From: Bacteroidota bacterium
GTDB taxonomy: Bacteria > Bacteroidota > Bacteroidia > Bacteroidales > GCA-2748055
Length of the DNA: 64,000 nt
Direction: 5' to 3'
Assembly (NCBI GenBank): GCA_039714655.1
Contig: JBDLIX010000006.1
Span: 4,448-68,447, forward strand
The first letter of the stretch is position 1. Every line of letters starts with the position of its first letter. A program made the translations under genes and the position numbers. Below are positions 9,922 to 52,405 of this stretch, one piece after another. Below the pieces are notes generated by a model. That model was not told the origin of the DNA, did not search any database, and saw only the letters and a program-made list of their open reading frames with translations.

Positions 9922-10035
9922 GGCAGGTAGAGGGTTAATGCACGCGCTATATTAGACAAATTAGACATTTTTCCTGTAAATAAGGGCTTTTTAGCTGAAA
10001 ATCTAATTCTTATCTTTGCGGAAAATCACCTCATC

Positions 10036-10722
10036 ATGCGCATTGACATCATTACGGTATTACCGAAATTGTTAGCAGGCCCCATCGATCATTCCATCAT
10101 TAAACGGGCGAGAGAAAAGGGTCTGGTGGAGATTCATCTGCACGATTTGCGGGATTTCTCGCTGGACAAACACAGGAAGGTGGATGATTATGCATTTGGT
10201 GGTGATGCCGGAATGGTGATGAGCATTGAGCCCATTTACAGAGCTATCAGCCATTTGACCTCCAAGAGGAATTACGACGAGATCATTTACACCTCTCCCG
10301 ATGGCAAGATGTTTAACCAGCAAGAAGCCAACCGCCTTGCCCTGGTGGAGAATATCATCATCCTTTGTGGTCACTACAAAGGGGTAGACCAGCGAGTACG
10401 GGATCAGTTGATCACCTCTGAGATCTCCATTGGAGATTATGTGATGACCGGTGGTGAACTTGCAGCTGCAGTAATTACCGACAGTGTGATACGGCTTTTG
10501 CCAGGTGCCATCTCAGATGAAACTTCGGCCCTGAGCGACTCTTTCCAGGATGGATTGTTAGCCCCGCCCGTCTATACACGTCCTTCTGAATATAAGGGAT
10601 GGAAAGTGCCTGACATATTGCTGTCGGGACACGCTTCCAAAATAACCGAATGGAAACATGAAAAATCCCTGGAACGGACCCGTAAACTGCGCCCACATCT
10701 GCTGGACGGATTTGAGGATTAA
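10036..10722 (+). CDS. trmD: tRNA (guanine37-N1)-methyltransferase
   Basis: [25 protein letters not shown] and [11 protein letters not shown] motifs; TATCTTTG at 10011-10018. Confidence 0.96.
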
Positions 10723-10723
10723 C

Positions 10724-12466: not shown

Positions 12467-12512
12467 TCACTTATATTTTGTCAGTTTAGAGGTGTCCTAA
12501 ATATAATAAAAC

Positions 12513-20852: not shown

Positions 20853-21572
20853 CTATCTTTTATGAAGTCCGCACTCCTTGTGGAGTTCATTTTCCCACCA
20901 CCAACGGCCGGAACGAATATCCTCTCCCGGTTCAATGGCGCGGGTGCAAGGCTCACACCCAATACTGGGGAATCCCCTGTCATGTAACAGATTATAGGGA
21001 ATTCCGTGATCTTTAATGTAGGACCAAACCTTCTTCTCGGACCAGTTGATCAATGGATTAATTTTCACCAGACCATTATTGGCATCCCACTCCACAAGGC
21101 TGTTGAAAAATCTGGACACTGACTGGTCTTTTCTCAAACCACAAATCCACGCTTCCATGCCTTCAAATGCCCTGGGTAGTTGTGCCACTTTTCTGATCCC
21201 GCAACACAGTTTACGATTCTCAACACTGTCGTAAAAGAGGTTGATTCCATAATTGGCCACCATCTCCTCTACCTTTGCAGGTTCGGGGAAGTAGGTTCTC
21301 ATCCTGATCTTAAAGTGTTTATTGGTCCGCGCAATAAGATCATATGTCTCAGGAAATAGCCGTCCCGTATCCAGCGTAAATACCCCCACCTCCTTATTCT
21401 GGCGCAGAACCATCTCTGTCAGCACCTGATCTTCCAGTCCCAGGCTGGTGGATAACACGATCTTCTCGCCGAAGTGGTGCAAAAAGAAACCGATCACCCC
21501 AATGGCACTCTTCTCCTTCAACTCCTCATTCCACTGCGCTATCTGCGCTTTCATCTCTTCAGTAGCTTCCAT
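20853..21572 (-). CDS. cysH: Thioredoxin-dependent (phospho)adenylylsulfate reductase, [4Fe-4S] APS-reductase type
   Basis: LDTGRLFPETY, CC pair (KLCCGIRK), SIGCEPCT and C-terminal KECGLH. Confidence 0.9.
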   Translation of the reverse strand: MEATEEMKAQIAQWNEELKEKSAIGVIGFFLHHFGEKIVLSTSLGLEDQVLTEMVLRQNKEVGVFTLDTGRLFPETYDLIARTNKHFKIRMRTYFPEPAKVEEMVANYGINLFYDSVENRKLCCGIRKVAQLPRAFEGMEAWICGLRKDQSVSRFFNSLVEWDANNGLVKINPLINWSEKKVWSYIKDHGIPYNLLHDRGFPSIGCEPCTRAIEPGEDIRSGRWWWENELHKECGLHKR

Positions 21573-26493: not shown

Positions 26494-29400
26494 ATGAGAA
26501 AAAGATTTACATTTTTAATGATGCTGGTTGCAGGTTTCCTCTTTTTTGGGAGTGACCTGGCAATGGCACAGGCTGAAGTCTGGAACAAGTCACATGTCTG
26601 GAATGCCGACCGGTATTACAGAGGACTCGCTTACAGCCCTTTGAATAACCACCTATATGTGGGTGGAACGGAAGGAGCCTATGTGGGTGATGCAGGCGGT
26701 ACTGTAAAAGAGGACAGCAAGATTCAGGTCCTTGATGCCGCTACCGGAGATTCTGTAACCACTCTTTCTCCCGCATCCGCAATGGGCGGTGACTGGGGAT
26801 ATGGCATCAGAGATGTTGAGGTCGATATGGAAGGGGGCATTTATGCCACCACTGGTACTTCGAATCAATACAATCCGGTACAGCTCTATTACTGGGCCAG
26901 TGAAGATGCAGAACCTGTTCAGTTATGGAAGGATGCTTCCGGAACTGCCGATGATTTTGGCGGTTCATTCAGTGTATATGGAAGTTTTTCCCATGAGGCA
27001 CTCATCATCATTCCCTTTGTCAATGTGGCCAAGGTGTATTATTTCGAAGTCGTTGACGGTGTGCTGGGCGAAGTAAAGACCCTTGATCTGACAGGACTCA
27101 CAAGCGTGAGGACTCCCACCGTACAGGCTCTTGGAGCGAAAATAGCGGATGGATTCTGGTACAATAACGTGGCGCTTCCGGGACCGGTTAAGTTTGACGG
27201 ATCCGGAAACATTACAGCAACAGTTCCTGCCGAAGTGTTTGCAACGCCTACCACAGGTGATTGTAAATTCGTTCAAATGGCACCTTTTGAGGCTCTGGTT
27301 ATTTCTGATTCGGGAAGTGTTGTAGCCATCAATATTACAGGTAAAGCTGCAGATCTGTCAGATGTGACCGCAGCAGATATACTGATGACTCTGCCGGGAA
27401 CTCCTCCGATCCATCAATCCATATGGCCGCACGTTTACGGTAACGGACAAGAGCAGATAGCCCTCGGTAATCCTGATGGTGGCTGGGCCATTTATTCATT
27501 ATCAGGAGGCAACTATGTAGCTGCCGTTGCAGGGGATGGAGCACCTACAGCGACCAACCTGAGCTTTAGCGGAAATCCTGTTGTGGCTGATGTGATTACT
27601 GCAGAATATCAATATATCGATTTTAACAATGACCTGGAAGGAACCTCAGAGATCAAGTGGTATGTGGCTGATGATGACGAGGGTACAGGTAAAGCTGAGA
27701 TCACTGCCAATGCTGGTAACCTGACCTACACACTGGATGCAGTTGATGAGGGTAAATACATCAGTTTCACAGTATTACCAGTTTCATCAACCGGGGCTAC
27801 CACCTCCAGTGCCTTGCATTTGGTCGAATCGGCAGCTTTCGGACCCGTACTGGCAGCAGCCAATCCTCCTGTAGCCAGCGATGTGGCTATCAGCGGAACC
27901 CTCTGGGCAGGAGAAATCCTTACCGGTAGTTATACCTATAGCGATGCCAATGGGGACTCTGAAGGAGAATCCGTGATCGAATGGTACCGTGCAGATGAAA
28001 CGGATACACTTCTTGTCAGCTCCGGTGGCCTGGAATATACCCTTGTAGATGCTGATACAGGTAAATATATCATATTGAGTGTTACACCTGTAGCTGAGGC
28101 AGGATGGTTCACAATTGGTGAGACTGTCAGTGCAGTAACTGCCGATACAGTATCGCCTCCACCACCCATACCTCCGGTGGCTTCTGAGCTTGGCATTACA
28201 GGCCGTGAAGAGGTAGCTGGTATTTTAACAGGAAGCTATACCTACACAGACTACAACGGAGATGCTGAGGCAGAAACCATATTAAAATGGTATCGGGCTG
28301 ATGATGCTATCGGGACCGGCAAAGTTGAGATTGTCGCCGATACCAACATGTATACCGTTGCAGTTGAAGATGAAGCTAAATATATATTGTTTGAAGTAAC
28401 CCCCATATCCGTAGAAACAGTCGGTATTGATACCGGTGTTGTGGTGATGGTCGCAACAGGTGTAATTGGTCCGGAACCCGCGGCTGAAGCGCCGGTGGCA
28501 ACCGATGTAATGATACACGGCACGGCCGAAGTTGGCGTTGTACTCTATGGTACCTATACGTATACCGACCGTACTGATGATCCTGAAGGAGCATCTGTCC
28601 ACTCATGGTATACGGCTGATGATACCCTCGGAACCAACCTTGCACCGGTTGCCGGTGCAGATGATAACGCCCTTCTGGTAACGGAAGATATGATTGGCAG
28701 TTACGTGGGATATGGAATTACCCCGGTTGCCACAGTAGGTGACCTGCTCACTGGTGAACTGGTCATTGTTCCTTCTGAAACTGTTGTCGCTGCATCCACC
28801 AATGATGGTGACTTTGAGCGTGTTTGGATGAGAGCTGCCAAACACAATGCGATTCCTGAATATATGGGGAGCGGAAATACCGAGCGTGGATTTGCAGTTG
28901 GGGCTGACCATATTTACATTGCCAGCAGGAATGGCGGAACGAACCTGCTTGTTGTCGATAAGAGCGATGGTACACTGATCACAAAAATGAATACCGAAGG
29001 CATGGATGCCGGGTTGTATAAGATCAGTGATGTGGAAGTTTCTGACGACGGTCAGATACTCGCCTGTCCGCTGACACTGAATGCAAGTGCGGCAACAGGA
29101 TGGGGTGCCGGATTATTTACCATCTACAAATGGACCGATGAACTGTCAGCTCCTGTAAAATGGATTGAATACCAGGCTTCTGAAAAGATGCGTCTTGGTG
29201 ATAAATTCACTGTCACAGGTGATGTCTCCGGAGATGCAGTGATTTATGCTGCAGCACCGGAAGGAAAAGTGGTCCGCTGGATTGTCACCGGTGGTATACC
29301 CGATACCGGCACTGAATTATCGCTGGAGGGTTTATCTACATTGGGAGTGACTCCTGCTGTAGTCCCATTCCAACCAACTGCAGACTCAGACTTCCTGGTG

Positions 29401-30627
29401 GATGCACGCGGATTACAGGCTCAGATTTTCGATAAAGACGGAATGTCTGTAGGAGCCATTGAAGGGGTAGGTAAGGATGATAACCAGTCCAATTCCCCGA
29501 ATATTTTCTATCATAAAGGGCGTACACTTGCAGCGTTCCATCAGAAAACCGAGGATTTGCAATGGAATGTGATTGTCAAAGACATCACTGCTGCACCGTT
29601 TGCGACTGTGGGTACATCCGAGGCACTCTCTTTTACGGACCAGGAACTTGGCGGTGTGCATGTAGCGTCTGATGCAGATTTCTTCTACCTCTATATGTTG
29701 TCAGCCAACAACGGAGTTGCACATTTCAAAGGTGTCTTAATAAGTCCTGAATTCGTATCGGCAGAATCCACTGAGACAGGAGACAGTCTGTTTGTTGTGT
29801 TCAGCAAGAGCATGCCCGATACCACCAATCAAAGTACAGGGTGGATTGTGAATGTAGATGGTGCACCGGTAGCGATCGATACCATCATTGGTACGGGTAC
29901 AGCGCCAGAGGTGTTAACCTTTGTTCTGGAATCAGCTGCTACTGAGGGACAGAGCATCACCATTGAATATGACGGAACAGGAACAGCCGCCGCTGCTGAT
30001 GCGCAGCCGCTGCTTGCCTTTGGTCCCGAGAATGTGGTCAATATTGTTGGTGCCCAAGTACCGGTTGCTACTGATGCTGCAGTGACAGGGGACCTCTTTG
30101 TGGGATCCACGCTTACAGGCACCTATACTTATGCAGATGCCAACGGCGATGTTGAGGAAGGCTCCGCTTATCAGTGGTACTATGCTTCTGATGCAGCAGG
30201 CAGCGATGCCCTGAAGCTTTTGGGTGAAAACGGAGCGACCTATGTGGTAGGAGATGATATGCGTGAGAAATATGTGGCATTCGAGGTGACTCCGGCCACT
30301 GCCACAGGTGGAATGAACTACCTGGTAGGCGAACCGGTAATGTCTGAATTTGTTCAGATCTCTACAGTTGGAATCGGGCTGGATCAATCATTGAATGTAA
30401 ATGTTTATCCCAACCCGTTTGCCAACACGCTGACCATTGATAACTGCAGTTCTTTCGAAACCATTGCTGTCATTGACATCACTGGTAGAGTTCAGCAGAG
30501 TGTCAAGACACTCGGTGAAAACAGAATTGAGCTGAACATGGAAGGATGCCAGAAGGGTGTCTACTTCCTGAAGCTCACCACTGTTGAGAGTAAAACTGAA
30601 GTAGTGCGCATTGTAAAAGCGCAATAA
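26494..30627 (+). CDS. Large T9SS-secreted multidomain protein: two propeller-like (DUF4623-like) domains, five AIR9/A9-like Ig repeats, SwmB-like domain
   Basis: Signal peptide; five P.A....I.G...VG..L.G.Y.Y.D...D.EG.S...WY..D-type repeats; RLGDKFTVTG module; CTD VYPNPF...GVYFLKL...RIVK. Confidence 0.72.
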   Translation: MRKRFTFLMMLVAGFLFFGSDLAMAQAEVWNKSHVWNADRYYRGLAYSPLNNHLYVGGTEGAYVGDAGGTVKEDSKIQVLDAATGDSVTTLSPASAMGGDWGYGIRDVEVDMEGGIYATTGTSNQYNPVQLYYWASEDAEPVQLWKDASGTADDFGGSFSVYGSFSHEALIIIPFVNVAKVYYFEVVDGVLGEVKTLDLTGLTSVRTPTVQALGAKIADGFWYNNVALPGPVKFDGSGNITATVPAEVFATPTTGDCKFVQMAPFEALVISDSGSVVAINITGKAADLSDVTAADILMTLPGTPPIHQSIWPHVYGNGQEQIALGNPDGGWAIYSLSGGNYVAAVAGDGAPTATNLSFSGNPVVADVITAEYQYIDFNNDLEGTSEIKWYVADDDEGTGKAEITANAGNLTYTLDAVDEGKYISFTVLPVSSTGATTSSALHLVESAAFGPVLAAANPPVASDVAISGTLWAGEILTGSYTYSDANGDSEGESVIEWYRADETDTLLVSSGGLEYTLVDADTGKYIILSVTPVAEAGWFTIGETVSAVTADTVSPPPPIPPVASELGITGREEVAGILTGSYTYTDYNGDAEAETILKWYRADDAIGTGKVEIVADTNMYTVAVEDEAKYILFEVTPISVETVGIDTGVVVMVATGVIGPEPAAEAPVATDVMIHGTAEVGVVLYGTYTYTDRTDDPEGASVHSWYTADDTLGTNLAPVAGADDNALLVTEDMIGSYVGYGITPVATVGDLLTGELVIVPSETVVAASTNDGDFERVWMRAAKHNAIPEYMGSGNTERGFAVGADHIYIASRNGGTNLLVVDKSDGTLITKMNTEGMDAGLYKISDVEVSDDGQILACPLTLNASAATGWGAGLFTIYKWTDELSAPVKWIEYQASEKMRLGDKFTVTGDVSGDAVIYAAAPEGKVVRWIVTGGIPDTGTELSLEGLSTLGVTPAVVPFQPTADSDFLVDARGLQAQIFDKDGMSVGAIEGVGKDDNQSNSPNIFYHKGRTLAAFHQKTEDLQWNVIVKDITAAPFATVGTSEALSFTDQELGGVHVASDADFFYLYMLSANNGVAHFKGVLISPEFVSAESTETGDSLFVVFSKSMPDTTNQSTGWIVNVDGAPVAIDTIIGTGTAPEVLTFVLESAATEGQSITIEYDGTGTAAAADAQPLLAFGPENVVNIVGAQVPVATDAAVTGDLFVGSTLTGTYTYADANGDVEEGSAYQWYYASDAAGSDALKLLGENGATYVVGDDMREKYVAFEVTPATATGGMNYLVGEPVMSEFVQISTVGIGLDQSLNVNVYPNPFANTLTIDNCSSFETIAVIDITGRVQQSVKTLGENRIELNMEGCQKGVYFLKLTTVESKTEVVRIVKAQ

Positions 30628-41700: not shown

Positions 41701-43386
41701 ATGATATTAATAGCAGACAGTGGCTCCACAAAAACCGATTGGAGATTAATCGATGGTGAGAAAGAGTATTCCATGTCAACCCGGGGGATCAATCCATACC
41801 ACTCCTCCACTGATGAAATTGCAGCAGAGTTGGATAAACTGGATGTGACCAAAGAGATAGAGAAAGTCCAGGATATTTTCTTCTATGGTTCCGGAGTAGC
41901 CAATGAGGCGATGAAAGAGGTGATGCGCAACTGCCTCCAACGTAAATTTGGTGAGAACACCAACATCCAGGTTGAAGATGATCTTACTGGAGTGGCACGG
42001 GCACTCTTTCTGCAGAATAACGGCATTGCCTGCATCCTTGGAACCGGTTCCAATTCGTGCCTTTACAAGGATGGTGAGATCCAGGATAAGGTACCTGCCC
42101 TGGGGTATTCCCTGGGTGATGAAGGGAGCGGTACCGATATTGGTAAACGACTTGTGAATGCGCTGTTAAAGAGAAACCTGAGTGATCAATTAAGAGAGGC
42201 GATTATTTCCGAAGAGGGACTTTCCGAGAACGAGATCCTGGAGAATGTATATAAGAAACCTCACGCAAACCGGTACCTTGCATCTCTTACGAAGATTGCT
42301 GGAAAATATATTGAACACAAGGAGATCAGGGAGATCGTATCCGAGGCATTTGACGACTTTATCCAAAAGAATATTTCAAAATACAAGGATTATGAAACCT
42401 CTGAAATTGGATTTGCAGGTTCTGTGGCCTATCATTTCAGCGAAATCCTCGCTGATGTACTCAAAAAACAACAACTGAAGTTCAGTCAGATCATCGCCAC
42501 GCCCATTGAGGGTCTGGTCAAATATCACAGGGAGGTAAAAACAACAAAGGCGAAGAGTACCGAATCCATCACAGAATCATCCTCCAGGTATGATAACCTT
42601 GAGAAAATGTCGGTGAAAGAGTTGCTGGCCAACATCAACAGGGAGGATAGTACCGTACACAAAGCGGTCCACACCATTATTCCTCAGATTCAAAAACTTG
42701 TGGAGGGCATCATACCCCGCATTATGAAGGGGGGGCGACTGTTCTATGTGGGAGCCGGGACCAGTGGCAGGTTAGGGATTTTAGATGCATCTGAGATCCC
42801 CCCCACCTTTGGTGTACCATATGACATTGTGATCGGGATCATCGCCGGGGGTGACAAAGCGATTCGAAAGGCTGTTGAATCGGCCGAAGATGATTTTCAC
42901 GGAGCCTGGCGCGACCTGGCCAAGTTTAAGCCCGGTAAAAATGATGTTATTGTAGGGATTGCTGCTTCGGGCAGAACTCCCTATGTGATCGGAGCAGTCA
43001 GAGACGGCAGGAATAATGGTCTCCTGACAGGTTGCATTACCTGTAATCCCAACTCCCAACTGGCCAAAGAGGTGGATGTCCCCCTGGAGGCCCTTGTGGG
43101 ACCTGAATTTGTAACAGGAAGTACGCGTATGAAGGCAGGAACTGCCCAAAAACTGATCCTGAATATGATTACCACTTCCACCATGATCAAGCTGGGAAAG
43201 GTGAAAGGCAACAAGATGGTGGATATGCAACTCACCAACAAAAAACTGGTGGAGCGGGGTTCCCGGATGATCAGTGATGAACTGGGCATCGACATGGAGG
43301 AATCACAACGCCTGCTGCTTCTGCACGGATCGGTCAGGAATGTTCTGGACATCTACAATATCGACAATCCCGAACAGAAATATTAG
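41701..43386 (+). CDS. murQ: Fusion of BadF/BcrAD-type amino-sugar kinase (MurK-like) and MurNAc-6-phosphate etherase MurQ
   Basis: N-half: ILIADSGSTKTDW, CILGTGSNS, LGDEGSG. C-half: GAGTSGRLGILDASEIPPTFG, ESAED, GIAASGRTPYV, GPEFVTGSTRMKAGTAQK. Confidence 0.92.
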   Translation: MILIADSGSTKTDWRLIDGEKEYSMSTRGINPYHSSTDEIAAELDKLDVTKEIEKVQDIFFYGSGVANEAMKEVMRNCLQRKFGENTNIQVEDDLTGVARALFLQNNGIACILGTGSNSCLYKDGEIQDKVPALGYSLGDEGSGTDIGKRLVNALLKRNLSDQLREAIISEEGLSENEILENVYKKPHANRYLASLTKIAGKYIEHKEIREIVSEAFDDFIQKNISKYKDYETSEIGFAGSVAYHFSEILADVLKKQQLKFSQIIATPIEGLVKYHREVKTTKAKSTESITESSSRYDNLEKMSVKELLANINREDSTVHKAVHTIIPQIQKLVEGIIPRIMKGGRLFYVGAGTSGRLGILDASEIPPTFGVPYDIVIGIIAGGDKAIRKAVESAEDDFHGAWRDLAKFKPGKNDVIVGIAASGRTPYVIGAVRDGRNNGLLTGCITCNPNSQLAKEVDVPLEALVGPEFVTGSTRMKAGTAQKLILNMITTSTMIKLGKVKGNKMVDMQLTNKKLVERGSRMISDELGIDMEESQRLLLLHGSVRNVLDIYNIDNPEQKY

Positions 43387-43614: not shown

Positions 43615-44709
43615 CTATTTCCTTCCGATAGATCTGGCATACAGCAATGCCACGGTCCTGTAAAGTATGTGTCCAAACTTTGTGAAAGGGAGGTACATGA
43701 TCACAAACCACACGGCCACAAGATGAAAAAAGTAAAGGTGATAGGCAATGGACCAGTTTCCAAAACGGGCCCACTCCACAAATGTTCCTGAGATGGTCAA
43801 TAAGCCTATGGATATGAGTAACAGCCAATCGGAATAACCGCTCTTCCCAAAGAGAGTTCTGTTAAAAAGGCGCTGTCCAGTCATGATACCCAGTCCGGTA
43901 AGGATCATTAATGAAGCTACATTTCCCGCGATCTTGAATGGATTCAGGAATGGCAATGGATAGTTATGTGTAATAGAAGCCCAGATAGCGTAAAGGGTGA
44001 CCAGGATCAGTGTTCCAAATCCAAAAAACACCAGCATATGAGCTATCTGCCTTTTTCGTTGTGAACCGCAACCTGAGAAATTGGAATGGGAGAGGATCTC
44101 GCCCAATATCTTTAACACCGGACGACTGGGACCTTTTTTATCTCCTGATGGCGGAGTCTGGCGTTTCATATCTTTCCAGAAAGATCCTATTCCCCATGAA
44201 GCCAGCAAATAAAAGACAAGTGTGATTGCCGAGAAGGTTGAGTTGAGCCATGCATGGGGAAAGAACTCGGAGTAATCCACCGGTCCCTCAGGGATTTTAA
44301 ATGTGCCTGCAATGGAAAGGATGGAGATAATCACCACCACCGGAATCAGGATAGCAACTGGCAACCATGCAGGCTCACTCACCAGTTTTCCCAGAAACTG
44401 CGGACGTGCATAATGCATATAACTCTTCTGCCGCACAGCGGCGATCACATCTGCCGGTTTTACATCACGGGGACAGTAGCTGCTGCAATCACCGCACTGA
44501 TGGCACAACCATACATCCACGTTTCCAATGAGTTTCTCCTTTAAACCCCAACCCGACCATACCATCTCCTTCCTGGGGAACGGTCTATCAGCCGGAGCCA
44601 GCGAACATACCGCAGAGCAATTCCCGCACTGCATGCACTGATTCAGTGGTGAACCGCTCATGCGGCTCAGCTCCCTTTTAAATTCTATGTCAGGTTTAAT
44701 TAAGTTCAC
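43615..44709 (-). CDS. qmoC: Quinone-interacting membrane-bound oxidoreductase subunit C
   Basis: CMQCGNCSAVC and WLCHQCGDCSSYCPR (HdrC-like) plus a multi-TM domain with four candidate heme-b His (FFPH, IAHML, FFHLV, FGHIL). Likely GTG start at 44709; the track's start at 44745 overlaps qmoB. Confidence 0.9.
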   Translation of the reverse strand: MNLIKPDIEFKRELSRMSGSPLNQCMQCGNCSAVCSLAPADRPFPRKEMVWSGWGLKEKLIGNVDVWLCHQCGDCSSYCPRDVKPADVIAAVRQKSYMHYARPQFLGKLVSEPAWLPVAILIPVVVIISILSIAGTFKIPEGPVDYSEFFPHAWLNSTFSAITLVFYLLASWGIGSFWKDMKRQTPPSGDKKGPSRPVLKILGEILSHSNFSGCGSQRKRQIAHMLVFFGFGTLILVTLYAIWASITHNYPLPFLNPFKIAGNVASLMILTGLGIMTGQRLFNRTLFGKSGYSDWLLLISIGLLTISGTFVEWARFGNWSIAYHLYFFHLVAVWFVIMYLPFTKFGHILYRTVALLYARSIGRK

Positions 44710-44716
44710 TTCTCTA

Positions 44717-46828
44717 TTACATACTCTTGAAAGGATTTGGACCAATGAGTTCCAGCTCCTCTATGTATTCATTAATGATCTCCTGTATTTCATGATGACC
44801 TGTAATCTCAACAAAACGGGTCCGGATCCGTTCAGGCTCCAGCATCATAGTTTCCAGAGTCTCCTGCAGGTTTTCGCCCCGTTGCTCGGTGAGTTCGCTG
44901 CCATGAATAAAATGACACTGGTAGTCGTCACCCGGCTTGCACCCAATCTGCAGAATTCCATCATACCCATGGGAAAGTGCATCTGAGATCCACACCTTGT
45001 TGATGGAGCCAAGGCATCGAACCGGGATAACCCTGACAAACGGACTATATTTTAACCGATGGACACCTGCTGCATCCAGGGCAGGATAAGCATCATTCTC
45101 ACAAACAAATACCAGTACCCTTGGTTTCTCTTCAAACTCATCGGGTACATGGATGGATTTGATCATGGCAGATACACTATTGATGGAGAAATCTGCAAAA
45201 CCGATGACCCTCTCAGGGCAAGAACCCACACAGATTCCACACCTGCGACACCTTGCCGGGTTGGGCAGGGGGGTCCCTTTTTCATTCTCGTCATAGCTCC
45301 CGAAAGGACACTCCTCCGTGCACCGCTTGCAATCGGTACAGCGGTCCATATAAAGCTCCGGGAAAGTCAGATCTCCGGATCGGGGATGGACCGCTTCTCC
45401 CCTCTTTACAGATTCAACAGACTGGATTGCCTTCATCATGGCTCCTGCCGCATCTTCCTGACTTGATTCCAGCTCCATGGGAGCCCTCACTGTGCCTGCA
45501 GCATAGACACCTGTCCTCCTGGTTTCATAGGGGAAGCAGATAAAGTGAGAATCGGAAAAATTATAGGCTATCTCAGGCAGTCCCCTACCCTGTCTGTATT
45601 GAAGCTGCAGATCCTCTGTACTGTTGGGAACCATTCCTGTGGCCAGCACTACCATATCGCTCTCGATCCCGATCATATCATCCAGCAGAGAATCTTTCAC
45701 GACAACTTGTACCGCATCAGCTTCTTCTGAAACCGAATCGATCACTCCCTTGGTGAGGAATATGGCATCATCGGCCTGGACCATTTTATAAAACTCTTCC
45801 TGAAATCCTGTTGTGCGGATATCCCTGTAGACAATAAAAACCTGTGAGTCAGGATTCTTTTCCCGCACATAGAGTGCCTGTTTAAGTGCAGCTGAACAGC
45901 AATAGGAGGAGCAGTAGGGAAGATGGTTCTCGTCCCTGGATCCTGCACATAATATAAAGAGAACCCGGTCCGGCACCTTTTCTACCTGAACAAACTTTTC
46001 AAACTCCTCCATGGTTTGAACCCTGGATGCACCATAACCCAGGTGTTTAAGTTTTCCCGTATCATACGGCTTCCATCCGGTTGCGACAACCACAGAACCA
46101 ACAGTGAACGGACGATCCTTTCCGTTTTGTAACTGTACTAAAAACTGACCTGGCTCACCGGAGACAGATCCTATCATCGTATCCAGATAAACCTCCACAT
46201 CTGAATGTGCAAGCACCTTTTCTGCCAGCGCCGTAGTATCTGGTTCACGCAATCCCTCACCTTGACCAGCAGAGGGCATTAGTTTATAAAGTCTTCCCGC
46301 GTATCCGCCCAGGGCTTTCCCCTTCTCCACCAGGTGTATCCGGTATCCGGCCTCTGCGCCTTCCAGCGCTGCTGTAATTCCGGTGACCCCTCCTCCAACC
46401 ACAAGTATGTCTGTGGATATGTTTTCAGGAATATAGGGGGTGTTATCTGAAATCGCATCCAGTTTAGCCAGAACCATCCTTACCTGGTCTTCCGCCATCA
46501 TTTGGGTATCTTCATCACCCGGCTCCATGACCCAGGTCACCTGCTCCCGCAGGTTAATCCTCTCCACATAGACATCTTCAATATTAAACAGCTCGCTCTT
46601 GACCCTTGGCGAGCATGCTGCAATGGCCAGCCTGTCAACTTCTGCCTCCCCGGAGATCCTGTGTAACTCCTCCAATCCCGCTTCAGAACAGAGTGCCTCA
46701 TGGGTAAAAGAGGTAATTCCCTCCACGGCTTCACCTGCTACCTGGAGAAGTTTCCCTGTATGGATGCAATCCCCTATTCCGCATCCGCTGCAAACTGCCA
46801 GAGCCATATGTTTTTTCGTTGTCTCCAT
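44717..46828 (-). CDS. qmoB: QmoB (HdrA-like FAD domain, ferredoxin, MvhD-like domain)
   Basis: VVGGGVTG, CAGSRD...YCSSYCC, HFICFPYETRRTG, CTDCKRCTEECP, CRRCGICVGSCP, VCENDAYPA and GCKPGDDYQCHF. Confidence 0.93.
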   Translation of the reverse strand: METTKKHMALAVCSGCGIGDCIHTGKLLQVAGEAVEGITSFTHEALCSEAGLEELHRISGEAEVDRLAIAACSPRVKSELFNIEDVYVERINLREQVTWVMEPGDEDTQMMAEDQVRMVLAKLDAISDNTPYIPENISTDILVVGGGVTGITAALEGAEAGYRIHLVEKGKALGGYAGRLYKLMPSAGQGEGLREPDTTALAEKVLAHSDVEVYLDTMIGSVSGEPGQFLVQLQNGKDRPFTVGSVVVATGWKPYDTGKLKHLGYGASRVQTMEEFEKFVQVEKVPDRVLFILCAGSRDENHLPYCSSYCCSAALKQALYVREKNPDSQVFIVYRDIRTTGFQEEFYKMVQADDAIFLTKGVIDSVSEEADAVQVVVKDSLLDDMIGIESDMVVLATGMVPNSTEDLQLQYRQGRGLPEIAYNFSDSHFICFPYETRRTGVYAAGTVRAPMELESSQEDAAGAMMKAIQSVESVKRGEAVHPRSGDLTFPELYMDRCTDCKRCTEECPFGSYDENEKGTPLPNPARCRRCGICVGSCPERVIGFADFSINSVSAMIKSIHVPDEFEEKPRVLVFVCENDAYPALDAAGVHRLKYSPFVRVIPVRCLGSINKVWISDALSHGYDGILQIGCKPGDDYQCHFIHGSELTEQRGENLQETLETMMLEPERIRTRFVEITGHHEIQEIINEYIEELELIGPNPFKSM

Positions 46829-48048
46829 TATGGTTGCATCGCCTTTAGAACTGCTGCCGTGGCATCCCTGACCGATGAAGCCACATCCATGGGCCTTTTG
46901 CAGGTGGCTGCCGGGATCATACCTGCCACCATGCCTGGTTCATAGAATCCATAGTTGTTTGTGGGTAGTTCAACCGCCAGATGATTGGGCACAAGACCCA
47001 TTGCCAGCACCACCATGTCATAGGACTCCATGCGCCTGGTTGCCGCCATGATATCCTCCACTTCAAGGATCAACCCATTCCCATTCTCATCAGAATTAAT
47101 TCGGCCCACCTTCCCTTTTGTAAGGGTGATGGAGGAGGATTCCTGAGCCTTGTTCAATAGTTTTTCATTTCTTCCTGCAAGCCTCAGATCGATGTAGAAT
47201 ATTTCGGTTTTCATTTCGGGATAACTCTCTGCCAGGGTCAGGGCATGCTTCAGGGATGCCGAACAGCAAACCGCTGAACAATAGGGCAAATGAAGATGGT
47301 CCCGTGAACCGGCGCACTGTATAAATGCAATGTTTTTGGGCACCTCTCCATCTGATGGTCTGATCAATTTCTTATGATCCCTCGTACAGGCCGCCAGCAT
47401 GTGCTCAAACTCCAGGTTGGTGACCACGTCAGGCTCTTCGGAATAGCGGTAATTCTCGATTCTGGATGCATCATAGAGCCTCCATCCGGTGGCCACAATA
47501 ATCTTCTTGGCCTGAATTTCAATTTCAACGGGTTTTGCATCCAGCTGGATGGCTTCATAGCCGCAAACCGCCAGGCATTTCCCGCACGCCTCTTTTTTAC
47601 ATACCTGCTCATCGATGGTATACTTCATTGGGAAAGCCAGTCCCCCTGGAACATAAGCAGCTTTTTCCTCCGGATTGCCACCTACAACAGTGGGCCTGAT
47701 TTCGGGACAAACCTCTGCGCACTTCCCACAGGATGTACACCTGCTATTGATAAGCCGGGCATCCAGTAATATCTTTGCATTGAAATCGCCGTCACTCCCC
47801 GAAATATCCTGCAACTGGGCTCCGGTATAATAGGTAATGCGAGAATTGGATCGGATTCTTTTGTAATTGATCTCCAGTCCGCATGCAGGAGGACACAGTT
47901 TGGGAAAGTAGTTGTTGAATCCAGATACATTTCCTCCCAGGTAGGGTTTCTTCTCAATGAGTACCACCTCCTGACCGGCCTCTGCCATTTCAACTGCTGC
48001 AGTTATACCGCTGATACCACCACCTATAATCAGAGTCGGAAAGCTCAA
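46828..48048 (-). CDS. qmoA: QmoA (HdrA-like)
   Basis: IIGGGISG, YFPKLCPPACG, CTSCGKCAEVCP and QCAGSRD..HLPYCSAVCC; TTG start; stop overlaps qmoB ATG (TAATG). Confidence 0.93.
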   Translation of the reverse strand: MSFPTLIIGGGISGITAAVEMAEAGQEVVLIEKKPYLGGNVSGFNNYFPKLCPPACGLEINYKRIRSNSRITYYTGAQLQDISGSDGDFNAKILLDARLINSRCTSCGKCAEVCPEIRPTVVGGNPEEKAAYVPGGLAFPMKYTIDEQVCKKEACGKCLAVCGYEAIQLDAKPVEIEIQAKKIIVATGWRLYDASRIENYRYSEEPDVVTNLEFEHMLAACTRDHKKLIRPSDGEVPKNIAFIQCAGSRDHLHLPYCSAVCCSASLKHALTLAESYPEMKTEIFYIDLRLAGRNEKLLNKAQESSSITLTKGKVGRINSDENGNGLILEVEDIMAATRRMESYDMVVLAMGLVPNHLAVELPTNNYGFYEPGMVAGMIPAATCKRPMDVASSVRDATAAVLKAMQP

Positions 48049-48071
48049 AGTGAAAAGTTGAAAGTTTTAAA

Positions 48072-49952
48072 TTATAAGATTTCGCGTTTTATCATGCTCC
48101 ACTCTCCGGTCCCGGGATCCCAACGGCAATTAGCAAAGGCTTCCCAATCTTCTTTCATGGTAGGATGATCAGTTCGGAAGTAGTAACCTGGCCACCTGGT
48201 CTCCTCCCTGAAAAGCAGCGTGCGCAGATGAGATTCAGCCTGCCACATCCGGTGAACATTCTCCCAGCAGCGCATCAGTTCATTCAGGTCACCTGCTGCC
48301 AGTTTAGCTGCATCCTCTTTCATAAACTGAAGGTACTCCAGCCCTTTGGTCAACAGTGCTTCGGAGGTTTTGAACCCAACAGAAGCACCTCCCGCATATT
48401 CGTCCATGATCTTCTGTAGCCGGAACATGAACATTTTTGGCTTGATGAAGTGGGGATTCACATCCTCATCGTTGGTGTAGTCACGATGCTGCTCAAATGT
48501 TTTCAGAGGTTGGAGCACCTGTTCTTTTAAGGCTGCAATCTGCTCATCACTGATGTGAACCGGCTCCGGATGATCCACACAAAAAGCGATGGCTGCTTTC
48601 CCTGCAATCCTGCCTTCGGTAAAGGAACCAGAAGAGAATTTATGGGACGAAGCACCCGATGCATCCCCTGCTGCAAAGAGTCCCTTCACGGTTGTCATGT
48701 TGTCGTATCCCCAGGAGTGTTCCCCCGGAGCAAGGTCTTCCGGACCGCTGATCCAGGCCCCGGAAGCTCCCGAATGCGAGCTGATGAAATAGGGCTCAGT
48801 GGCGGAAATCTCAGAAGGAGCTTTCTCTGGCATTATATTATGAGATGCCCAGTTTAGCGCCTGGCTGACAGTCATATCCAGAAAATCCTCCCATGCCTCC
48901 GATTCCAGCTCCTTAAGCTTTCTCTTCGACTCCTTTTCATCAGGAATCTGCGCCACCAGTTCCCTGATGGCCTCGTCGGTTCGCATATAGATGGGACCAT
49001 TGCCTTCCTCGAGCTCAAGCAGCATCAGGTAGTTTCGAAGGTTTGTGGGAGTAGGTTTTGCAGTTCCGTATGGAGCCCATTTTTCTAACTCTCCAGCACG
49101 AGTCTGCATGTAATCTTCCCCTTTTGCATTGGTAGCTTTGGCCTTAAAAAGCAGGAACCATGCTCCCACCGGCCCATAAGAATCCTTAAAACGCACAGGT
49201 ACAAAACGAACTTCCTGACAGGTCATTTCGGCACCTGACTTCAAAGTGAAGTAGGTACTGGCGCCGCTGTTGAAAGGGGGATACCAGGATCTACCCAGTC
49301 CCTCTCCCACTGAGCGTGGACGGAATATATGTACAGCACCACCCATGGAATCGAGGACAGCTTTGGCCTTAAAGAGATAAAATTTATTCTCCCGAACACT
49401 GAATCCCACTGCTCCAACACATCGATCTTCGAGAACCACCGGTTCCGTGATGAAAATGCGTTCATGGTAAGATCCATTTTCGCCCAACTCTTTCAGGGCA
49501 TTCTTGGCTGCCTCGGATACAATATTCTTATACGATTCTCCGTGGATCATGATCTGCCACCTTCCCTCGTTCACATAATTTCCTTCATCATCCTTCCAGA
49601 TGGGTAATCCCCATTTTTCAAAAAGATGGACCGATGAATCCACATGACGGGCAATATTTGCAACCAGGTCTTTCCTGGCAATCCCCATGAGGTCGTTCTT
49701 TACATAACTGACGTAATCCTCAACCGTGTTGTTGCCATTCTTCAGACCCAGGTAGAGGTTGATGGCTGAAAGTCCCATGGCCACAGCCCCGCTTCGCTCC
49801 ATTGCAGCTTTATCCACCAATGTAACACGCTGGTTATGTTTTTTTGCCCAGTGGGCAGCTTCGTAGGCTGCCCCGCAGGCAGCCATTCCACCTCCAAGGA
49901 TCAACAGATCGGTTTCCACTACCACTGTCTCAAAACTATCTGCATTTATCAC
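48072..49952 (-). CDS. aprA: Dissimilatory-type adenylylsulfate reductase alpha subunit
   Basis: RSGAVAMGLSAIN, WQIMIHGESYK, GRSWYPPFN, RFVPVRFKDSYGPVGAWF, HKFSSGSFTEGR and REETRWPGYY; GTG start. Confidence 0.96.
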   Translation of the reverse strand: MINADSFETVVVETDLLILGGGMAACGAAYEAAHWAKKHNQRVTLVDKAAMERSGAVAMGLSAINLYLGLKNGNNTVEDYVSYVKNDLMGIARKDLVANIARHVDSSVHLFEKWGLPIWKDDEGNYVNEGRWQIMIHGESYKNIVSEAAKNALKELGENGSYHERIFITEPVVLEDRCVGAVGFSVRENKFYLFKAKAVLDSMGGAVHIFRPRSVGEGLGRSWYPPFNSGASTYFTLKSGAEMTCQEVRFVPVRFKDSYGPVGAWFLLFKAKATNAKGEDYMQTRAGELEKWAPYGTAKPTPTNLRNYLMLLELEEGNGPIYMRTDEAIRELVAQIPDEKESKRKLKELESEAWEDFLDMTVSQALNWASHNIMPEKAPSEISATEPYFISSHSGASGAWISGPEDLAPGEHSWGYDNMTTVKGLFAAGDASGASSHKFSSGSFTEGRIAGKAAIAFCVDHPEPVHISDEQIAALKEQVLQPLKTFEQHRDYTNDEDVNPHFIKPKMFMFRLQKIMDEYAGGASVGFKTSEALLTKGLEYLQFMKEDAAKLAAGDLNELMRCWENVHRMWQAESHLRTLLFREETRWPGYYFRTDHPTMKEDWEAFANCRWDPGTGEWSMIKREIL

Positions 49953-49973
49953 AATTAAATCTCTTTAGTTTGT

Positions 49974-50408
49974 CTACTTTTTGTACAACTCTGTTCCCAG
50001 TGATTCGGGTTCAGTTCTCAATCCGGGCCCTTTCAAGTCATCTGTCCCTGTAGAACATCCGGCATCAGGCACGATGCTCCCTTCGGGGGTGGTCCGGATG
50101 GGAAATTTGAAACGTTTCACCATCTTATTCCGGAACCTGACCGCCCACATGATCGAATCGGTACTCCGTAGAGGCTGCACCACCCCACCCATGGGCATAA
50201 AATCTGCATAACCTCTGATCTCGATTGCCTGCGTAGGACAGATCTTTACACAGCTGTAACACTCCCAGCACATGTCCACAGCACGATTAAAGGCTTTGTT
50301 TTTTTCCTTGTCAAGCACCATCAGGTCATTGGGACAAATATACTGACAGGCAGTACGATCCTGGGCTTTGCAGCCATCGCACTTTTCAGTAATTACGAAA
50401 CTCGGCAT
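49974..50408 (-). CDS. aprB: Adenylylsulfate reductase beta subunit
   Basis: CDGCK....ACQYICPNDLM, CWECYSCVKICP, RGYADF and KRFKFPIRTTPEG. Confidence 0.96.
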   Translation of the reverse strand: MPSFVITEKCDGCKAQDRTACQYICPNDLMVLDKEKNKAFNRAVDMCWECYSCVKICPTQAIEIRGYADFMPMGGVVQPLRSTDSIMWAVRFRNKMVKRFKFPIRTTPEGSIVPDAGCSTGTDDLKGPGLRTEPESLGTELYKK

Positions 50409-50432
50409 AGATTTTTTTGTTTGAGAACTTCA

Positions 50433-50440
50433 CAAACATA
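50433..50440 (-). promoter_or_regulatory. Bacteroidota -7 promoter element for aprBA-qmoABC
   Basis: TATGTTTG (TAnnTTTG) 24 bp upstream of the aprB ATG; no clear -33 TTTG seen. Confidence 0.6.
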
Positions 50441-50513
50441 ATTAAATAATCCCGGGGGTGATTGTTGAAAACCCGGGGCAGAGGAAATTTAGAATTATTA
50501 TAAAATCAATTAA

Positions 50514-52286
50514 TCAATCGTCTGAAAAATGTTTGAGCATTTCGCGGTAAGAGGAGAAAACCCGGGCGCGGGAGACAAATCCAAGGTATTTGCCATTTTG
50601 CAAGACCGGAATATTATAGCGCTGACTTTCGGTAAAGACCCTGGCAACCTCTTCCATCTGATCGGTGCTCTCAACCGTCCAGGCTGGATGGATCATCAGG
50701 TCACTGATTTTAGTGGTATCATACATCTCCTGGTTGAACATGATGTGCCTGATGTCATCCAGTTTGACGATCCCCTCCAGGTTGTGCTTTTCATCTACAA
50801 CCGGGTAGATGTTCCTGCTGGACTTGGTAACCACTTTGATAAGGTCCCTGAGCGTCTCATTGGACCGTACCGTACTGAAATTGGTTTCGATCAGATCAGC
50901 TACTTTCATCATCAGAAGGATGTTCTTGTCCTTGTGATGGGTCATCAATTCCCCCCTTTTAGCCAGCTGAACTGTATACACCGAGTTCGTCACAAAATAC
51001 CTGGTTGTAGCATAGGAGATGGTAGAGGCCAGCATCAGGGGTAAAAAAAGTTCGTACCCACCGGTAATTTCCGCAATCAGGAAAATGGCTGTTAAAGGCG
51101 CATGGACCACACCTGCTATCATGCCAGCCATGCCTACCAGGGCCATGTTACTAACCGAAACATCGATACCCAGCTGGTTCAGAACAAGACCAAATATTAA
51201 ACCCATGTTGGCCCCCATAAACAAGGACGGTGCAAAGATCCCCCCAATACCCCCTGCAGCAAAGGTGAGTGTGGTTGCAATCACTTTGATCCCGATCACC
51301 AGTAAGATATAGATAATTACAAGGGCAAATGTGTGGTGCCACCCTTCAAAAAATGTCCCATCAAAAAGGTGCAGGTACTCTCCCCGTAATCCCTGGTTCA
51401 CTACTTCATAGCCTTCACCATACAGAGAGGGAAAAAAGAAAATAATTACTCCAAGTATACCTCCGGCCACCAGGAGTCGTTTCCAGGGACTCTGAAACTT
51501 TTCAAAAAGGCTGGAAATATGGATGTAAATCTTAGTGAAATAAACAGATAGTAATCCCAATACAATTCCAAGCATCAGGTAGTAATGGATCTGGTTCATC
51601 TGAAAGCTTTCAGCTACCTGGAAAGGATAGAGTACATTCTGGCCCAGAAAAAAGTAGGAGGTCATGGCTCCGGTTGCAGAAGCAATAAGCAATGGAATCA
51701 CAGCCCACATGGTCAGGTCGAGCATAAGCACCTCCAGTGCAAACACAATCCCGGCAATAGGCGCTTTGAATATGGCCGACATAGCCCCGGCACTGGCACA
51801 GGAGATCAACAGGGTAACCTCTTTGTAACTGAGCTTAAAAAGTTTCCCAATACTGGATCCAATGGCCCCACCAGTGGCCACGGTCGGTCCCTCCAATCCC
51901 ACCGATCCTCCAAATCCCACCGTTAATGCACTTGTGATGATACTGGAGTAGAGATTATGGGGACGAATAATCCCGTTGTTTTTAGAGATTGAAAACAGCA
52001 CACCAGGAATACCATGGCCCACACGATGTCTATTGATGTACTTTATGTAGACTACAGCCAGCGCAATCCCCACAACGGGCAGTATGAAAATATAATACCT
52101 GCTGTATTCACCGTGGAAACCATTTTCAAGTGCCTCTCGTATAAAATGCACCAGGTTTTTAATGACCACAGCTGCAAGACCTACACCCAGACCAACAAAA
52201 GCAGCCAGTAGATACAGAAACCTTTGGCGTGTTAAGTGCCTGTTTTTGAAATTATTAACCCTATGTAGAAATCGCTTTTCCGACAT
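50514..52286 (-). CDS. ClC chloride channel/transporter with tandem CBS domains
   Basis: GHGIP, GGSVGLEGP and GGIFAPSLFMG motifs plus a C-terminal CBS pair. Start moved to ATG 52286, downstream of TATTTTTG at 52294-52301. Confidence 0.9.
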   Translation of the reverse strand: MSEKRFLHRVNNFKNRHLTRQRFLYLLAAFVGLGVGLAAVVIKNLVHFIREALENGFHGEYSRYYIFILPVVGIALAVVYIKYINRHRVGHGIPGVLFSISKNNGIIRPHNLYSSIITSALTVGFGGSVGLEGPTVATGGAIGSSIGKLFKLSYKEVTLLISCASAGAMSAIFKAPIAGIVFALEVLMLDLTMWAVIPLLIASATGAMTSYFFLGQNVLYPFQVAESFQMNQIHYYLMLGIVLGLLSVYFTKIYIHISSLFEKFQSPWKRLLVAGGILGVIIFFFPSLYGEGYEVVNQGLRGEYLHLFDGTFFEGWHHTFALVIIYILLVIGIKVIATTLTFAAGGIGGIFAPSLFMGANMGLIFGLVLNQLGIDVSVSNMALVGMAGMIAGVVHAPLTAIFLIAEITGGYELFLPLMLASTISYATTRYFVTNSVYTVQLAKRGELMTHHKDKNILLMMKVADLIETNFSTVRSNETLRDLIKVVTKSSRNIYPVVDEKHNLEGIVKLDDIRHIMFNQEMYDTTKISDLMIHPAWTVESTDQMEEVARVFTESQRYNIPVLQNGKYLGFVSRARVFSSYREMLKHFSDD

Positions 52287-52405
52287 GGCATGACAAAAAT
52301 AGCATTTTAGGCTGCAGAACAAAAAGGAATGTTGAATTTAGAATGTACTATCTTTGTTCAGAAGTTTGTCGGAAATAATGTAAGAAGGTTTGCGTTTAAG
52401 AGTAT

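Follow-up and report, generated by a model that had tools for sequence, protein, structure and literature searches.

The 64,000-nucleotide stretch of DNA analysed here, referred to as the window, corresponds to positions 4448-68447 of a 78.7-kb contig (C6) of the Bacteroidales-like genome G000 and carries, at 43615-50408, an aprBA-qmoABC operon. Handles beginning with G, L and f denote genomes, loci and families, respectively, and G000 is the genome of the window; its assembly, made up of 320 contigs totalling 5.75 Mb, has a completeness of 97.7% and an estimated contamination of 4.43%. In the list of open reading frames (ORFs), five back-to-back, full-length ORFs on the minus strand fill this segment in the order aprB-aprA-qmoA-qmoB-qmoC. 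From these genes we predict that the operon encodes a native, functional oxidoreductase, AprBA-QmoABC, acting between adenosine phosphosulfate (APS)/sulfite and menaquinone. Its components are as follows:

49974..50408, minus strand: aprB, beta (electron-transfer) subunit of APS reductase, 144 amino acids (aa)
48072..49952, minus strand: aprA, alpha (catalytic, flavin adenine dinucleotide, FAD) subunit of APS reductase, 626 aa
46828..48048, minus strand: qmoA, HdrA-like flavoprotein with an N-terminal FAD fold (Pfam), 406 aa
44717..46828, minus strand: qmoB, HdrA-like flavoprotein with ferredoxin and C-terminal MvhD/FlpD domains, 703 aa
43615..44745, minus strand: qmoC, membrane heme-b/Fe-S subunit, 376 aa as listed

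AprB matched TIGR02060 with 196.7 bits (cut-off 135.65) and PF12139, the C-terminal segment of APS reductase, with 104.2 bits. It retains eight cysteines (positions 10, 13, 21, 25, 47, 50, 53 and 57, two [4Fe-4S] motifs) as well as Trp48, and Trp-B48 is described as the electron-transfer residue of this subunit (PMC2211403). AprA scored 867.8 bits against the equivalog model TIGR02061 (cut-off 641.75) and was aligned by phmmer over 619 residues, with 778 bits, to the enzyme of A. fulgidus (2FJA/1JNR). Thirteen residues that bind the flavin or belong to the active site or the substrate channel were taken from Meyer & Kuever 2008 (PMC2211403), and all 13 are identical to 2FJA in this alignment: Leu70, Asn74, Tyr95, Glu141, Trp234, Arg265, Val273, Gly274, Leu278, Arg317, Asp361, His398 and His446. 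AprBA is predicted to catalyse the reaction APS <-> sulfite + AMP. Within the genus, divergence at nonsynonymous sites (dN) ranges from 0.04 to 0.24, with 0.04-0.07 for aprA, and omega was <=0.09 wherever it could be computed, the values being approximate, or not computable for more distant pairs, since synonymous divergence (dS) is saturated.

The HdrA2 model covered residues 5-404 of QmoA with 312 bits, which is under the cut-off of that family, as expected for Qmo; the identity of qmoA rests also on its place in the conserved gene order. QmoB matched the same model with 370.7 bits and contains a 4Fe-4S dicluster domain at 491-557 and the FlpD domain PF02662 at 571-696 (133.9 bits). QmoC was recognised by the equivalog NF038018 (369.3 bits, cut-off 300); its start is uncertain, as residue 29 is the first to be encoded by ATG, whereas the match to the family sets in at residue 18. 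Two CxxCxxCxxxC motifs and His220, His236, His341 and His359 are kept in 92-100% of 51 QmoC sequences. The four histidines lie in or beside the hydrophobic stretches found within residues 120-362 and are candidate heme-b ligands. Judged from their sequences, the genes of the operon are intact and under constraint: the family scores of AprB, AprA and QmoC exceed their cut-offs and the Fe-S, catalytic and candidate heme-ligand residues are kept, in agreement with an earlier note on this DNA, which had described the operon at 43615-50408 as intact.

The operon is surrounded by genes of Bacteroidota type, among them proteins with sorting domains of the type IX secretion system (T9SS) and a SusC/RagA protein (636.8 bits). 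These flanks, together with relatives labelled 'Bacteroidales', bear out the view of the earlier note that the host is Bacteroidales-like. The immediate neighbours are the following:

50514..52322, minus strand: ClC-type anion channel with a CBS pair (PF00654, 274.7 bits), upstream of aprB
50409..50513, minus strand: intergenic region upstream of aprB, with a G+C-rich palindromic hairpin and then, some 30 nt ahead of the aprB start codon (ATG), a TAnnTTTG-like box
41701..43386, plus strand: gene convergent with qmoC, for a fusion of MurQ, an etherase of N-acetylmuramic acid (MurNAc)-6-P, and a BadF/NagK-like ATPase domain

The MurQ part of the fusion protein spans residues 290-541 (NF003915, 362 bits), and the BadF/BcrA/NagK-like ATPase domain is N-terminal. 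Five loci of the same clade (L012-L016), which come from independent public metagenome-assembled genomes (MAGs), share the order RelA/SpoT-like gene, T9SS protein gene, ClC gene and aprBA-qmoABC, the ClC gene adjoining aprB in all five. The MurQ fusion adjoins qmoC in L012-L015, the only loci in which this side is visible, as L016 stops inside qmoB. Two of the five contigs are 0.56 and 1.95 Mb long.

Could the operon of a sulfate reducer have been joined to this contig by a chimeric assembly, or brought in with a contaminant? The fragmentation into 320 contigs, the 4.43% contamination and the G+C content of the operon (0.48-0.51), slightly higher than that of the flanks (0.43-0.48), could be read in this way. 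Nevertheless, the operon and its flanks recur identically in the five other assemblies, including the two long contigs, aprA is found in most species of the genus (see below), and its product falls into a clade made up of Bacteroidales only. Read depth is also even over 38-56 kb, at about 30-45 and 4-9 in two DNA runs, without joints; both runs come from one marine-metagenome study, whose contigs are so short that no listed piece spans a border. These two were the only runs listed for the stretch, with no RNA run among them. Because of the shared synteny and the even depth, a chimera, for which the earlier note had proposed that the borders be checked, is effectively excluded, its probability being negligible, and the locus is native.

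The hairpin and the box in the intergenic region may represent a terminator, for the ClC gene, and a promoter belonging to the operon itself. We take the box to resemble the -7 consensus of Bacteroidetes. A scan for sigma-70 sites gave 13 sites versus 12.2 expected from shuffled sequences, i.e. no excess.

The operon is a common possession of the genus: aprA was found in 21 of the 24 other species genomes. It was found in none of 16 genomes drawn as relatives from 16 other families. Across the order, surveyed through an even draw of 401 genomes, it occurred in 25 genomes, belonging to 16 of 236 genera and 14 of 148 families. The gene order aprBA-qmoABC is retained across the Bacteroidales loci wherever the contig reaches far enough.

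A tree of 99 distinct AprA sequences was built with IQ-TREE (quick mode, LG+G4), with eight duplicates and two loci containing internal stops omitted. All 44 sequences of Bacteroidales type form one clade (SH-aLRT 100, stem length 0.21). The 55 sequences outside it are of Desulfobacterota, Bacillota, Acidobacteriota, Gemmatimonadota, Zixibacteria and Ignavibacteria types. Identity to AprA of the window is 81-92% in the nearest group, 74-77% in the second group and at most 71% outside Bacteroidales, where the nearest relatives are of the type of sulfate-reducing bacteria (SRB), i.e. from sulfate-reducer-like lineages. The earlier note had named placement of the host in a lineage already known for Apr/Qmo as a possible objection, which is not borne out; the clade of its AprA stands apart from the Ignavibacteria type, in a tree that holds no Chlorobia or Kapabacteria reference, and the 80 best loci included no sequence from Chlorobia. 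In L055, L064 and L086, which are of Ignavibacteria type, sat is found immediately upstream of aprB, an arrangement found in none of 36 non-redundant loci of Bacteroidales type.

Some transfer within the order is likely, since family f79 holds two places in the clade: L113 groups with L026, L028 and L029, and L034 is a long-branched sequence close to where the third subclade has its base. One sequence labelled 'Chlorobiota bacterium' (L019) nests among the Bacteroidales sequences; either its label is wrong or the bin is mixed, probably. In public metagenomes, at least 120 protein clusters (at the 90% identity level) are 85-95% identical to AprA of the window. Every named cluster is a MAG, with no isolate among the matches listed, and the carriers are an uncultured group of marine-sediment Bacteroidales.

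Two kinds of interruption of the operon were also seen. Five loci of different families have an additional small ORF inside the operon, which measures about 134 aa and belongs to the '23S rRNA-intervening sequence protein' family (PF05635, 70 bits): between aprB and aprA in L017, between aprA and qmoA in L021 and L115, and between qmoB and qmoC in L099 and L102. In the closed genome G412 (L112, contig C1, at about 9922-14987), a segment of about 5 kb with four ORFs parts aprA from qmoA and splits the operon.

The earlier note had remarked that neither sat nor dsr stands beside the operon, and this holds far beyond the locus, as neither was found anywhere in the 97.7%-complete genome G000, nor, as a rule, in its genus. 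Sat (TIGR00339) was detected in 0 of 49 genomes of the genus and in one of 22 other aprA-positive genomes, which represent 13 other families and a second genus of f1; the single match is under the cut-off and comes from a 63%-complete MAG. The domain of siroheme nitrite and sulfite reductases (PF01077), which covers DsrAB, AsrC, CysI, Sir and Fsr, was not found in G000 and appeared in one of the 49 genomes, on a 1.1-kb contig of a MAG of 950 contigs, and in none of the 22, two closed genomes included. Across the order 31 of 401 genomes have it, and these do not include any of the 25 with aprA. The model of dsrA (TIGR02064) had no match in G000. DsrC proper is recognised by two conserved C-terminal cysteines. 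The sole DsrC/TusE homologue found has a single C-terminal cysteine and is therefore TusE-like. As regards an oxidative Apr pathway, DsrA and Sat were not found, and sHdr, SoeABC and persulfide dioxygenase were not searched for. Since Sat, siroheme sulfite reductases and a two-cysteine DsrC are missing, respiration of sulfate or sulfite to sulfide is encoded by no known enzyme in these gene sets, and the same applies to Dsr-based sulfur oxidation.

This bears on the first option of the earlier note, unrecognised sulfate reduction, which is rejected in view of the near-total lack of siroheme sulfite reductases. In a cryptic variant, sulfate or sulfite reduction would be complete and dissimilatory, with sulfite converted to sulfide by a non-siroheme enzyme, e.g. 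a multiheme cytochrome. The SRB type of the operon and the origin of its nearest non-Bacteroidales AprA relatives (at most 71% identity) in sulfate-reducer-like lineages fit such a pathway, and a study of Zodletone (PMC9040765) names 'Bacteroidota' among lineages capable of sulfate reduction, its main text giving no details. On the other hand, Sat, DsrA, PF01077 and two-cysteine DsrC are absent from the genus and from the 22 other genomes, bar stray matches (multiheme sulfite reductases were not searched for), and activation of sulfate by CysD and CysN (CysDN) would cost more than two electrons repay. We consider this variant very unlikely.

The TusE-like gene belongs to a conserved cluster, observed at L097 (G000:C149, 12009-12842) and L098 (G017:C8, 8442-11222), where the single-cysteine TusE/DsrC-like protein is accompanied by a DsrE2-like protein, a 231-aa protein with a weak match to DUF1641 and an SQR/FCSD-like flavoprotein. 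Judging from its composition, the cluster may be a module handling sulfide or persulfide. The TusE/DsrC-like gene was present in four of five genomes of the genus and in 13 of the 22 other aprA-positive genomes, a co-occurrence too inconsistent, and lacking a background frequency for comparison, to link it to Apr.

The assimilatory enzymes of the APS node, by comparison, are widespread. CysD was found in 43 of 49 genomes of the genus (25 of 26 high-quality ones), with CysN beside it, and in 18 of the 22 aprA-positive genomes outside the genus. CysC was identified in G017 and also in G000, where it forms a CysN-CysC fusion on a contig of 3.7 kb. The assimilatory reductase is encoded in the window itself:

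20853..21572, minus strand: cysH, thioredoxin-dependent assimilatory APS reductase, 239 aa (TIGR02055, 255 bits, cut-off 235.3)

Its best match among solved structures was 2GOY, the 'adenosine phosphosulfate reductase' of P. aeruginosa (189 bits), versus about 105 bits for reductases of phosphoadenosine phosphosulfate (PAPS). The protein contains CC...CxxC and ECGLH motifs. An APS-type CysH is presumably what such a pair of motifs indicates. CysH was detected in 24 of 25 aprA-positive and in 236 of 376 aprA-negative genomes of the order, the sole aprA-positive miss being 63% complete; related genomes are not independent, hence no P-value is given. The assimilatory set of CysDN, CysC and CysH is thus present, and the sulfite reductase step (CysIJ/Sir) was not found in it.

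Two types of CysD occur in the genus, scoring about 504 and about 415 bits against TIGR02039; G019 and G049 carry both, and G000 only the type of about 504 bits, on the 3.7-kb contig with the CysN-CysC fusion (G000:C284, L004). In G017, G012 and G015, aprA and cysDN share a contig, at a distance of 53-62 kb. As a side observation on the order as a whole, CysH is common (260 of 401 genomes) and the siroheme sulfite/nitrite reductase domain rare (31 of 401). From this gene content, most CysH-bearing Bacteroidales would make sulfite without a known enzyme for its reduction, and some other sink for sulfite must exist.

The gene cysH is a recurrent neighbour of the operon. It was found in the fetched region adjoining the operon in 14 of 36 non-redundant Bacteroidales loci; several of the others stop at a contig edge and are uninformative in this respect. 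In f1, f25, f79, f84 and f127 it is located no more than 4.5 kb from the operon. The closest arrangement is seen in f127 and f25, with cysH directly upstream of aprB, on the same strand, after a gap of 232-312 bp (L100, L101 and L104); in L099 and L102 one gene stands between. In f79 and in the unplaced loci L026 and L029 (LJUP01), a cluster of MnmA, cysH, (NhaA), MurU and AmgK-like genes diverges from aprB. The distance is 3.3 kb in f84 and about 4 kb, beyond qmoC, in L013-L015 of the window's genus. In the window itself cysH lies 22 kb from the operon, with a SusC/D-type locus between them, and in G154, G412 and G166 it is also far away.

In aprA-negative Bacteroidales, cysH occurs beside cysDN or in a context of Mpl, NamZ, MnmA and NhaA genes. 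Comparison of the aprA-negative locus L125 (NamZ, cysH, Mpl) with L101 (NamZ, FtsX-like, peptidase gene, qmoCBA, aprAB, cysH, Mpl) indicates, from gene order, that the operon is placed immediately downstream of cysH inside an otherwise conserved neighbourhood. As the adjacency is present in all three main AprA subclades, its pattern suggests that it is ancestral, and its recurrence speaks for a connection that is functional, or historical at the least. The remaining recurrent neighbours are not related to sulfur: Rho, Mpl-like Mur ligase, NamZ, FtsX-like, DUF4293, NhaA, SiaC-like, BNR, peptidase and fucosidase genes. In several families, genes of MurNAc/peptidoglycan recycling (MurU, AmgK-like, Mpl-like, NamZ) surround cysH and the apr operon.

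The earlier note had taken the separate CysH in the window as an argument against an assimilatory role of the operon. This argument does not hold, given that cysH recurrently adjoins the operon across families, sometimes upstream on the same strand.

Purifying selection has maintained the AprA clade of Bacteroidales in many families that lack Sat, sulfite reductases of the DsrAB, AsrC or CysI type and a two-cysteine DsrC. Starting from the observed gene content, conservation, phylogeny and genomic context, we infer the quinone coupling, the direction and the fate of APS as follows. AprBA would interconvert APS and sulfite plus AMP, exchanging two electrons with membrane menaquinone through Qmo. 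The module would be attached to an assimilatory-type APS node, at which CysDN makes APS, CysC converts it to PAPS and CysH reduces it to sulfite. The potentials of APS/sulfite (-60 mV) and menaquinone (-75 mV) given by Ramos et al. 2012 (PMC3333476) are nearly equal, so the module should work near equilibrium. According to the same paper, menaquinol alone is unable to drive APS reduction, and electrons on their way from the quinone site to AprBA have to move against the membrane potential, so that sulfate reducers need a second, low-potential donor for this step. Electrons should thus pass more easily from sulfite to quinone than the other way.

We tentatively suggest that the usual direction is net oxidation of sulfite to APS, which is plausible, if short of probable. 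Sulfite and AMP would be converted to APS, with electrons passing to menaquinone and further to fumarate reductase or an oxidase. The APS would be drained by CysC, by CysD(N) working in reverse to yield ATP and sulfate, or by CysH, and this flow would be pulled by the APS-consuming reactions and by quinol oxidation. The module could then serve for the disposal of sulfite, as a minor electron input to the quinone pool, or as a cheap source of APS for PAPS or ATP. A precedent for the oxidative direction is AprAB of Pelagibacter, proposed for sulfite detoxification (PMC7416419). The opposite use, sulfate-to-sulfite reduction as an electron sink, which was another option of the earlier note, would be energetically unattractive, as reducing CysDN-made APS to dump two electrons would cost ATP and GTP without repayment here.

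The strongest, albeit indirect, pointer to the oxidative direction comes from f25, represented by five genomes of one genus, all fragmented MAGs that are 77-96% complete. Neither CysD nor the Sat-type ATP-sulfurylase domain (PF01747) was found in any of the five. Three of them have aprA, each with cysH beside it (cysH-aprBA-qmoABC), and CysC was seen only in G212, at a contig edge. With no ATP sulfurylase recognised, APS in f25 would, if the absence is real, arise only from sulfite via AprBA.

Several points weigh against net sulfite oxidation. There is no Sat to pull the oxidative reaction. CysDN is GTP-driven and known for the synthesis of APS, and to our knowledge its use in reverse is without precedent. 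A source of sulfite is also hard to name: Xsc reached the cut-off in none of five genomes, its matches being generic thiamine diphosphate (ThDP) enzymes, and molybdoenzymes of PF00384, which could include thiosulfate or polysulfide reductase, numbered 4, 1, 3, 3 and 0 in five genomes, with 0 in G362. These counts are inconsistent, and thiosulfate or polysulfide reductase was set aside as the source. The adjacency to cysH, whose product converts APS to sulfite, fits a shared reductive role at least as well. Furthermore, the context of CysH (Mpl, NamZ, MnmA and NhaA) is conserved in aprA-negative Bacteroidales too, and part of the adjacency may be inherited synteny, not selection. Finally, cysDN may have been lost in assembly gaps in f25, where the MAGs are fragmented and cysC of G212 is at a contig edge.

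Some of these points lead to the main rival, a reductive, biosynthetic explanation, in which CysDN makes APS and AprBA-QmoABC reduces it to sulfite, the electrons coming from menaquinol and probably also from a donor of low potential. The cell would thereby have another route to sulfite besides CysH, and the sulfite would enter a non-sulfide sink such as sulfonates, sulfonolipids or other sulfite-consuming biosynthesis. CysDN is indeed common in aprA-positive genomes (43 of 49 in the genus, 18 of 22 elsewhere), and cysH and the operon are recurrent neighbours, in places possibly co-transcribed, as is typical of one pathway. Moreover, CysH without siroheme sulfite reductase is the norm of the order (260 versus 31 of 401 genomes), so another sulfite sink must exist. 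Sulfonolipids are made by a pathway that runs via cysteate synthase. The model of this enzyme (TIGR03844) matched above its cut-off in G154 and G412, but it was not found in G000 and G017, which belong to the window's genus, or in G362. With two of five genomes, and none in the window's genus, a sulfonolipid/cysteate sink was rejected as a general explanation.

For such a role of an Apr-like enzyme, the PAPS reductase of a methanogen is presumably a biological parallel. PDB entry 8A8O is titled as an assimilatory PAPS reductase of a methanogen, and the enzyme is Apr-like. The route would, however, be redundant with a cysH of 0.7 kb, yet strong constraint maintains an operon of 6.8 kb that is rich in cofactors. 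APS is also poorly reduced by menaquinol alone (PMC3333476), and f25 has the operon but no recognised ATP sulfurylase to supply APS. The reductive explanation is thus possible, but we regard it as rather doubtful.

The gene content of f25 fits a third arrangement as well, a catalytic shuttle in which CysH would reduce APS to sulfite with thioredoxin and AprBA-Qmo would remake APS, passing the electrons to menaquinone. The net flow would run from thioredoxin (NADPH) to menaquinone, with a small, recycled APS/sulfite pool as the soluble mediator and no net turnover of sulfur. Thioredoxin has a potential of about -270 mV. The net reaction would be exergonic, from about -270 mV to -75 mV. In f25 and f127 cysH immediately precedes aprB in the same orientation, and in f25, with no CysD and no Sat in five of five genomes, these are the only recognised APS-handling enzymes; the shuttle would account for the retention of the cluster there without ATP sulfurylase or sulfite reductase. 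On the other hand, it has no precedent, and there is no recognised physiological need to drain thioredoxin into the quinone pool. CysDN is present in most aprA-positive genomes, and cysH is distant from the operon in many (22 kb in the window; also in G154, G412 and G166). This makes the shuttle unlikely.

Net oxidation of sulfite to APS therefore stays our tentative preference. With respect to the four options of the earlier note, sulfate reduction and the electron sink are not supported; what is left is a choice between oxidation of sulfite by the enzyme working in reverse and a quinone-linked route at the assimilatory APS node.

One further feature of the window, at 26494-30627 on the plus strand, is a gene for a 1377-aa protein with weak matches to the ZirU/SinI families (95 and 86 bits, under the cut-offs), located upstream of the SusC/D-type locus.

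The gene aprA serves as a standard marker when sulfate reducers and sulfur oxidisers are surveyed in sediments and water columns. The distinct AprA clade described here, spread over 14 families, belongs to polysaccharide-degrading Bacteroidales without known genes of sulfate respiration. Surveys based on marker genes and KEGG modules will miscount these Bacteroidales as sulfate reducers or sulfur oxidisers, because aprA is present without sulfate respiration. The group might constitute a natural system for asking what Apr-Qmo does alone and which way it runs, and it raises the wider question of the fate of sulfite in CysH-bearing Bacteroidales (260 of 401 genomes, versus 31 of 401 with the siroheme domain).

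In the literature, genes of the Dsr pathway in Bacteroidota are listed for Chlorobia and Kapabacteria only, as far as the relevant parts of two studies go (Diao et al. 2023, PMC10591310; DiSCo, PMC8477390). No description of Apr-Qmo in the class Bacteroidia was found in full-text literature; supplements, e.g. the Zodletone MAG tables, might mention it.

Among the known systems, Sat-AprBA-QmoABC of Chlorobaculum tepidum is alike in being a five-gene module with QmoC in a non-sulfate-reducer of the same wider phylum (in the GTDB sense). In a study of sulfite oxidation in C. tepidum, electrons are reportedly thought to run from sulfite to the quinone pool. In the Chlorobi, unlike in Bacteroidales, sat adjoins the operon and sulfite is produced by an oxidative Dsr system (PMC10504309). 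AprA of Bacteroidales forms a clade of its own, and the 80 best loci offered no Chlorobia sequence for comparison.

With sulfate reducers (Desulfovibrio; A. fulgidus) the Bacteroidales share the operon order, the QmoC equivalog and the active-site residues of AprA, and their nearest relatives outside the order are of SRB type. Unlike sulfate reducers, they have no Sat, DsrAB, two-cysteine DsrC or siroheme sulfite reductase, and because these are missing the operon is not the APS step of an eight-electron respiration.

AprBA (with AprM) of Pelagibacter is another dissimilatory-type APS reductase of an organoheterotroph without Dsr, proposed to work from sulfite to APS (PMC7416419). It belongs to Apr lineage I of sulfur-oxidising bacteria (SOB) and has no Qmo (PMC2211403), whereas the operon of Bacteroidales has Qmo. 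Pelagibacter is also an aerobe, with taurine catabolism proposed as its source of sulfite, and Xsc was found in none of five Bacteroidales genomes.

With assimilatory sulfate reduction, the system shares CysD, CysN, CysC and an APS-type CysH, as well as the recurrent cysH neighbour. Unlike a complete assimilatory path, it lacks the sulfite reductase step and has an additional, quinone-linked APS reductase of dissimilatory type. In comparison with all of these systems, the known parts AprBA and QmoABC are found here in a new, reproducible metabolic wiring, separated from Sat and Dsr and tied to the CysH node.

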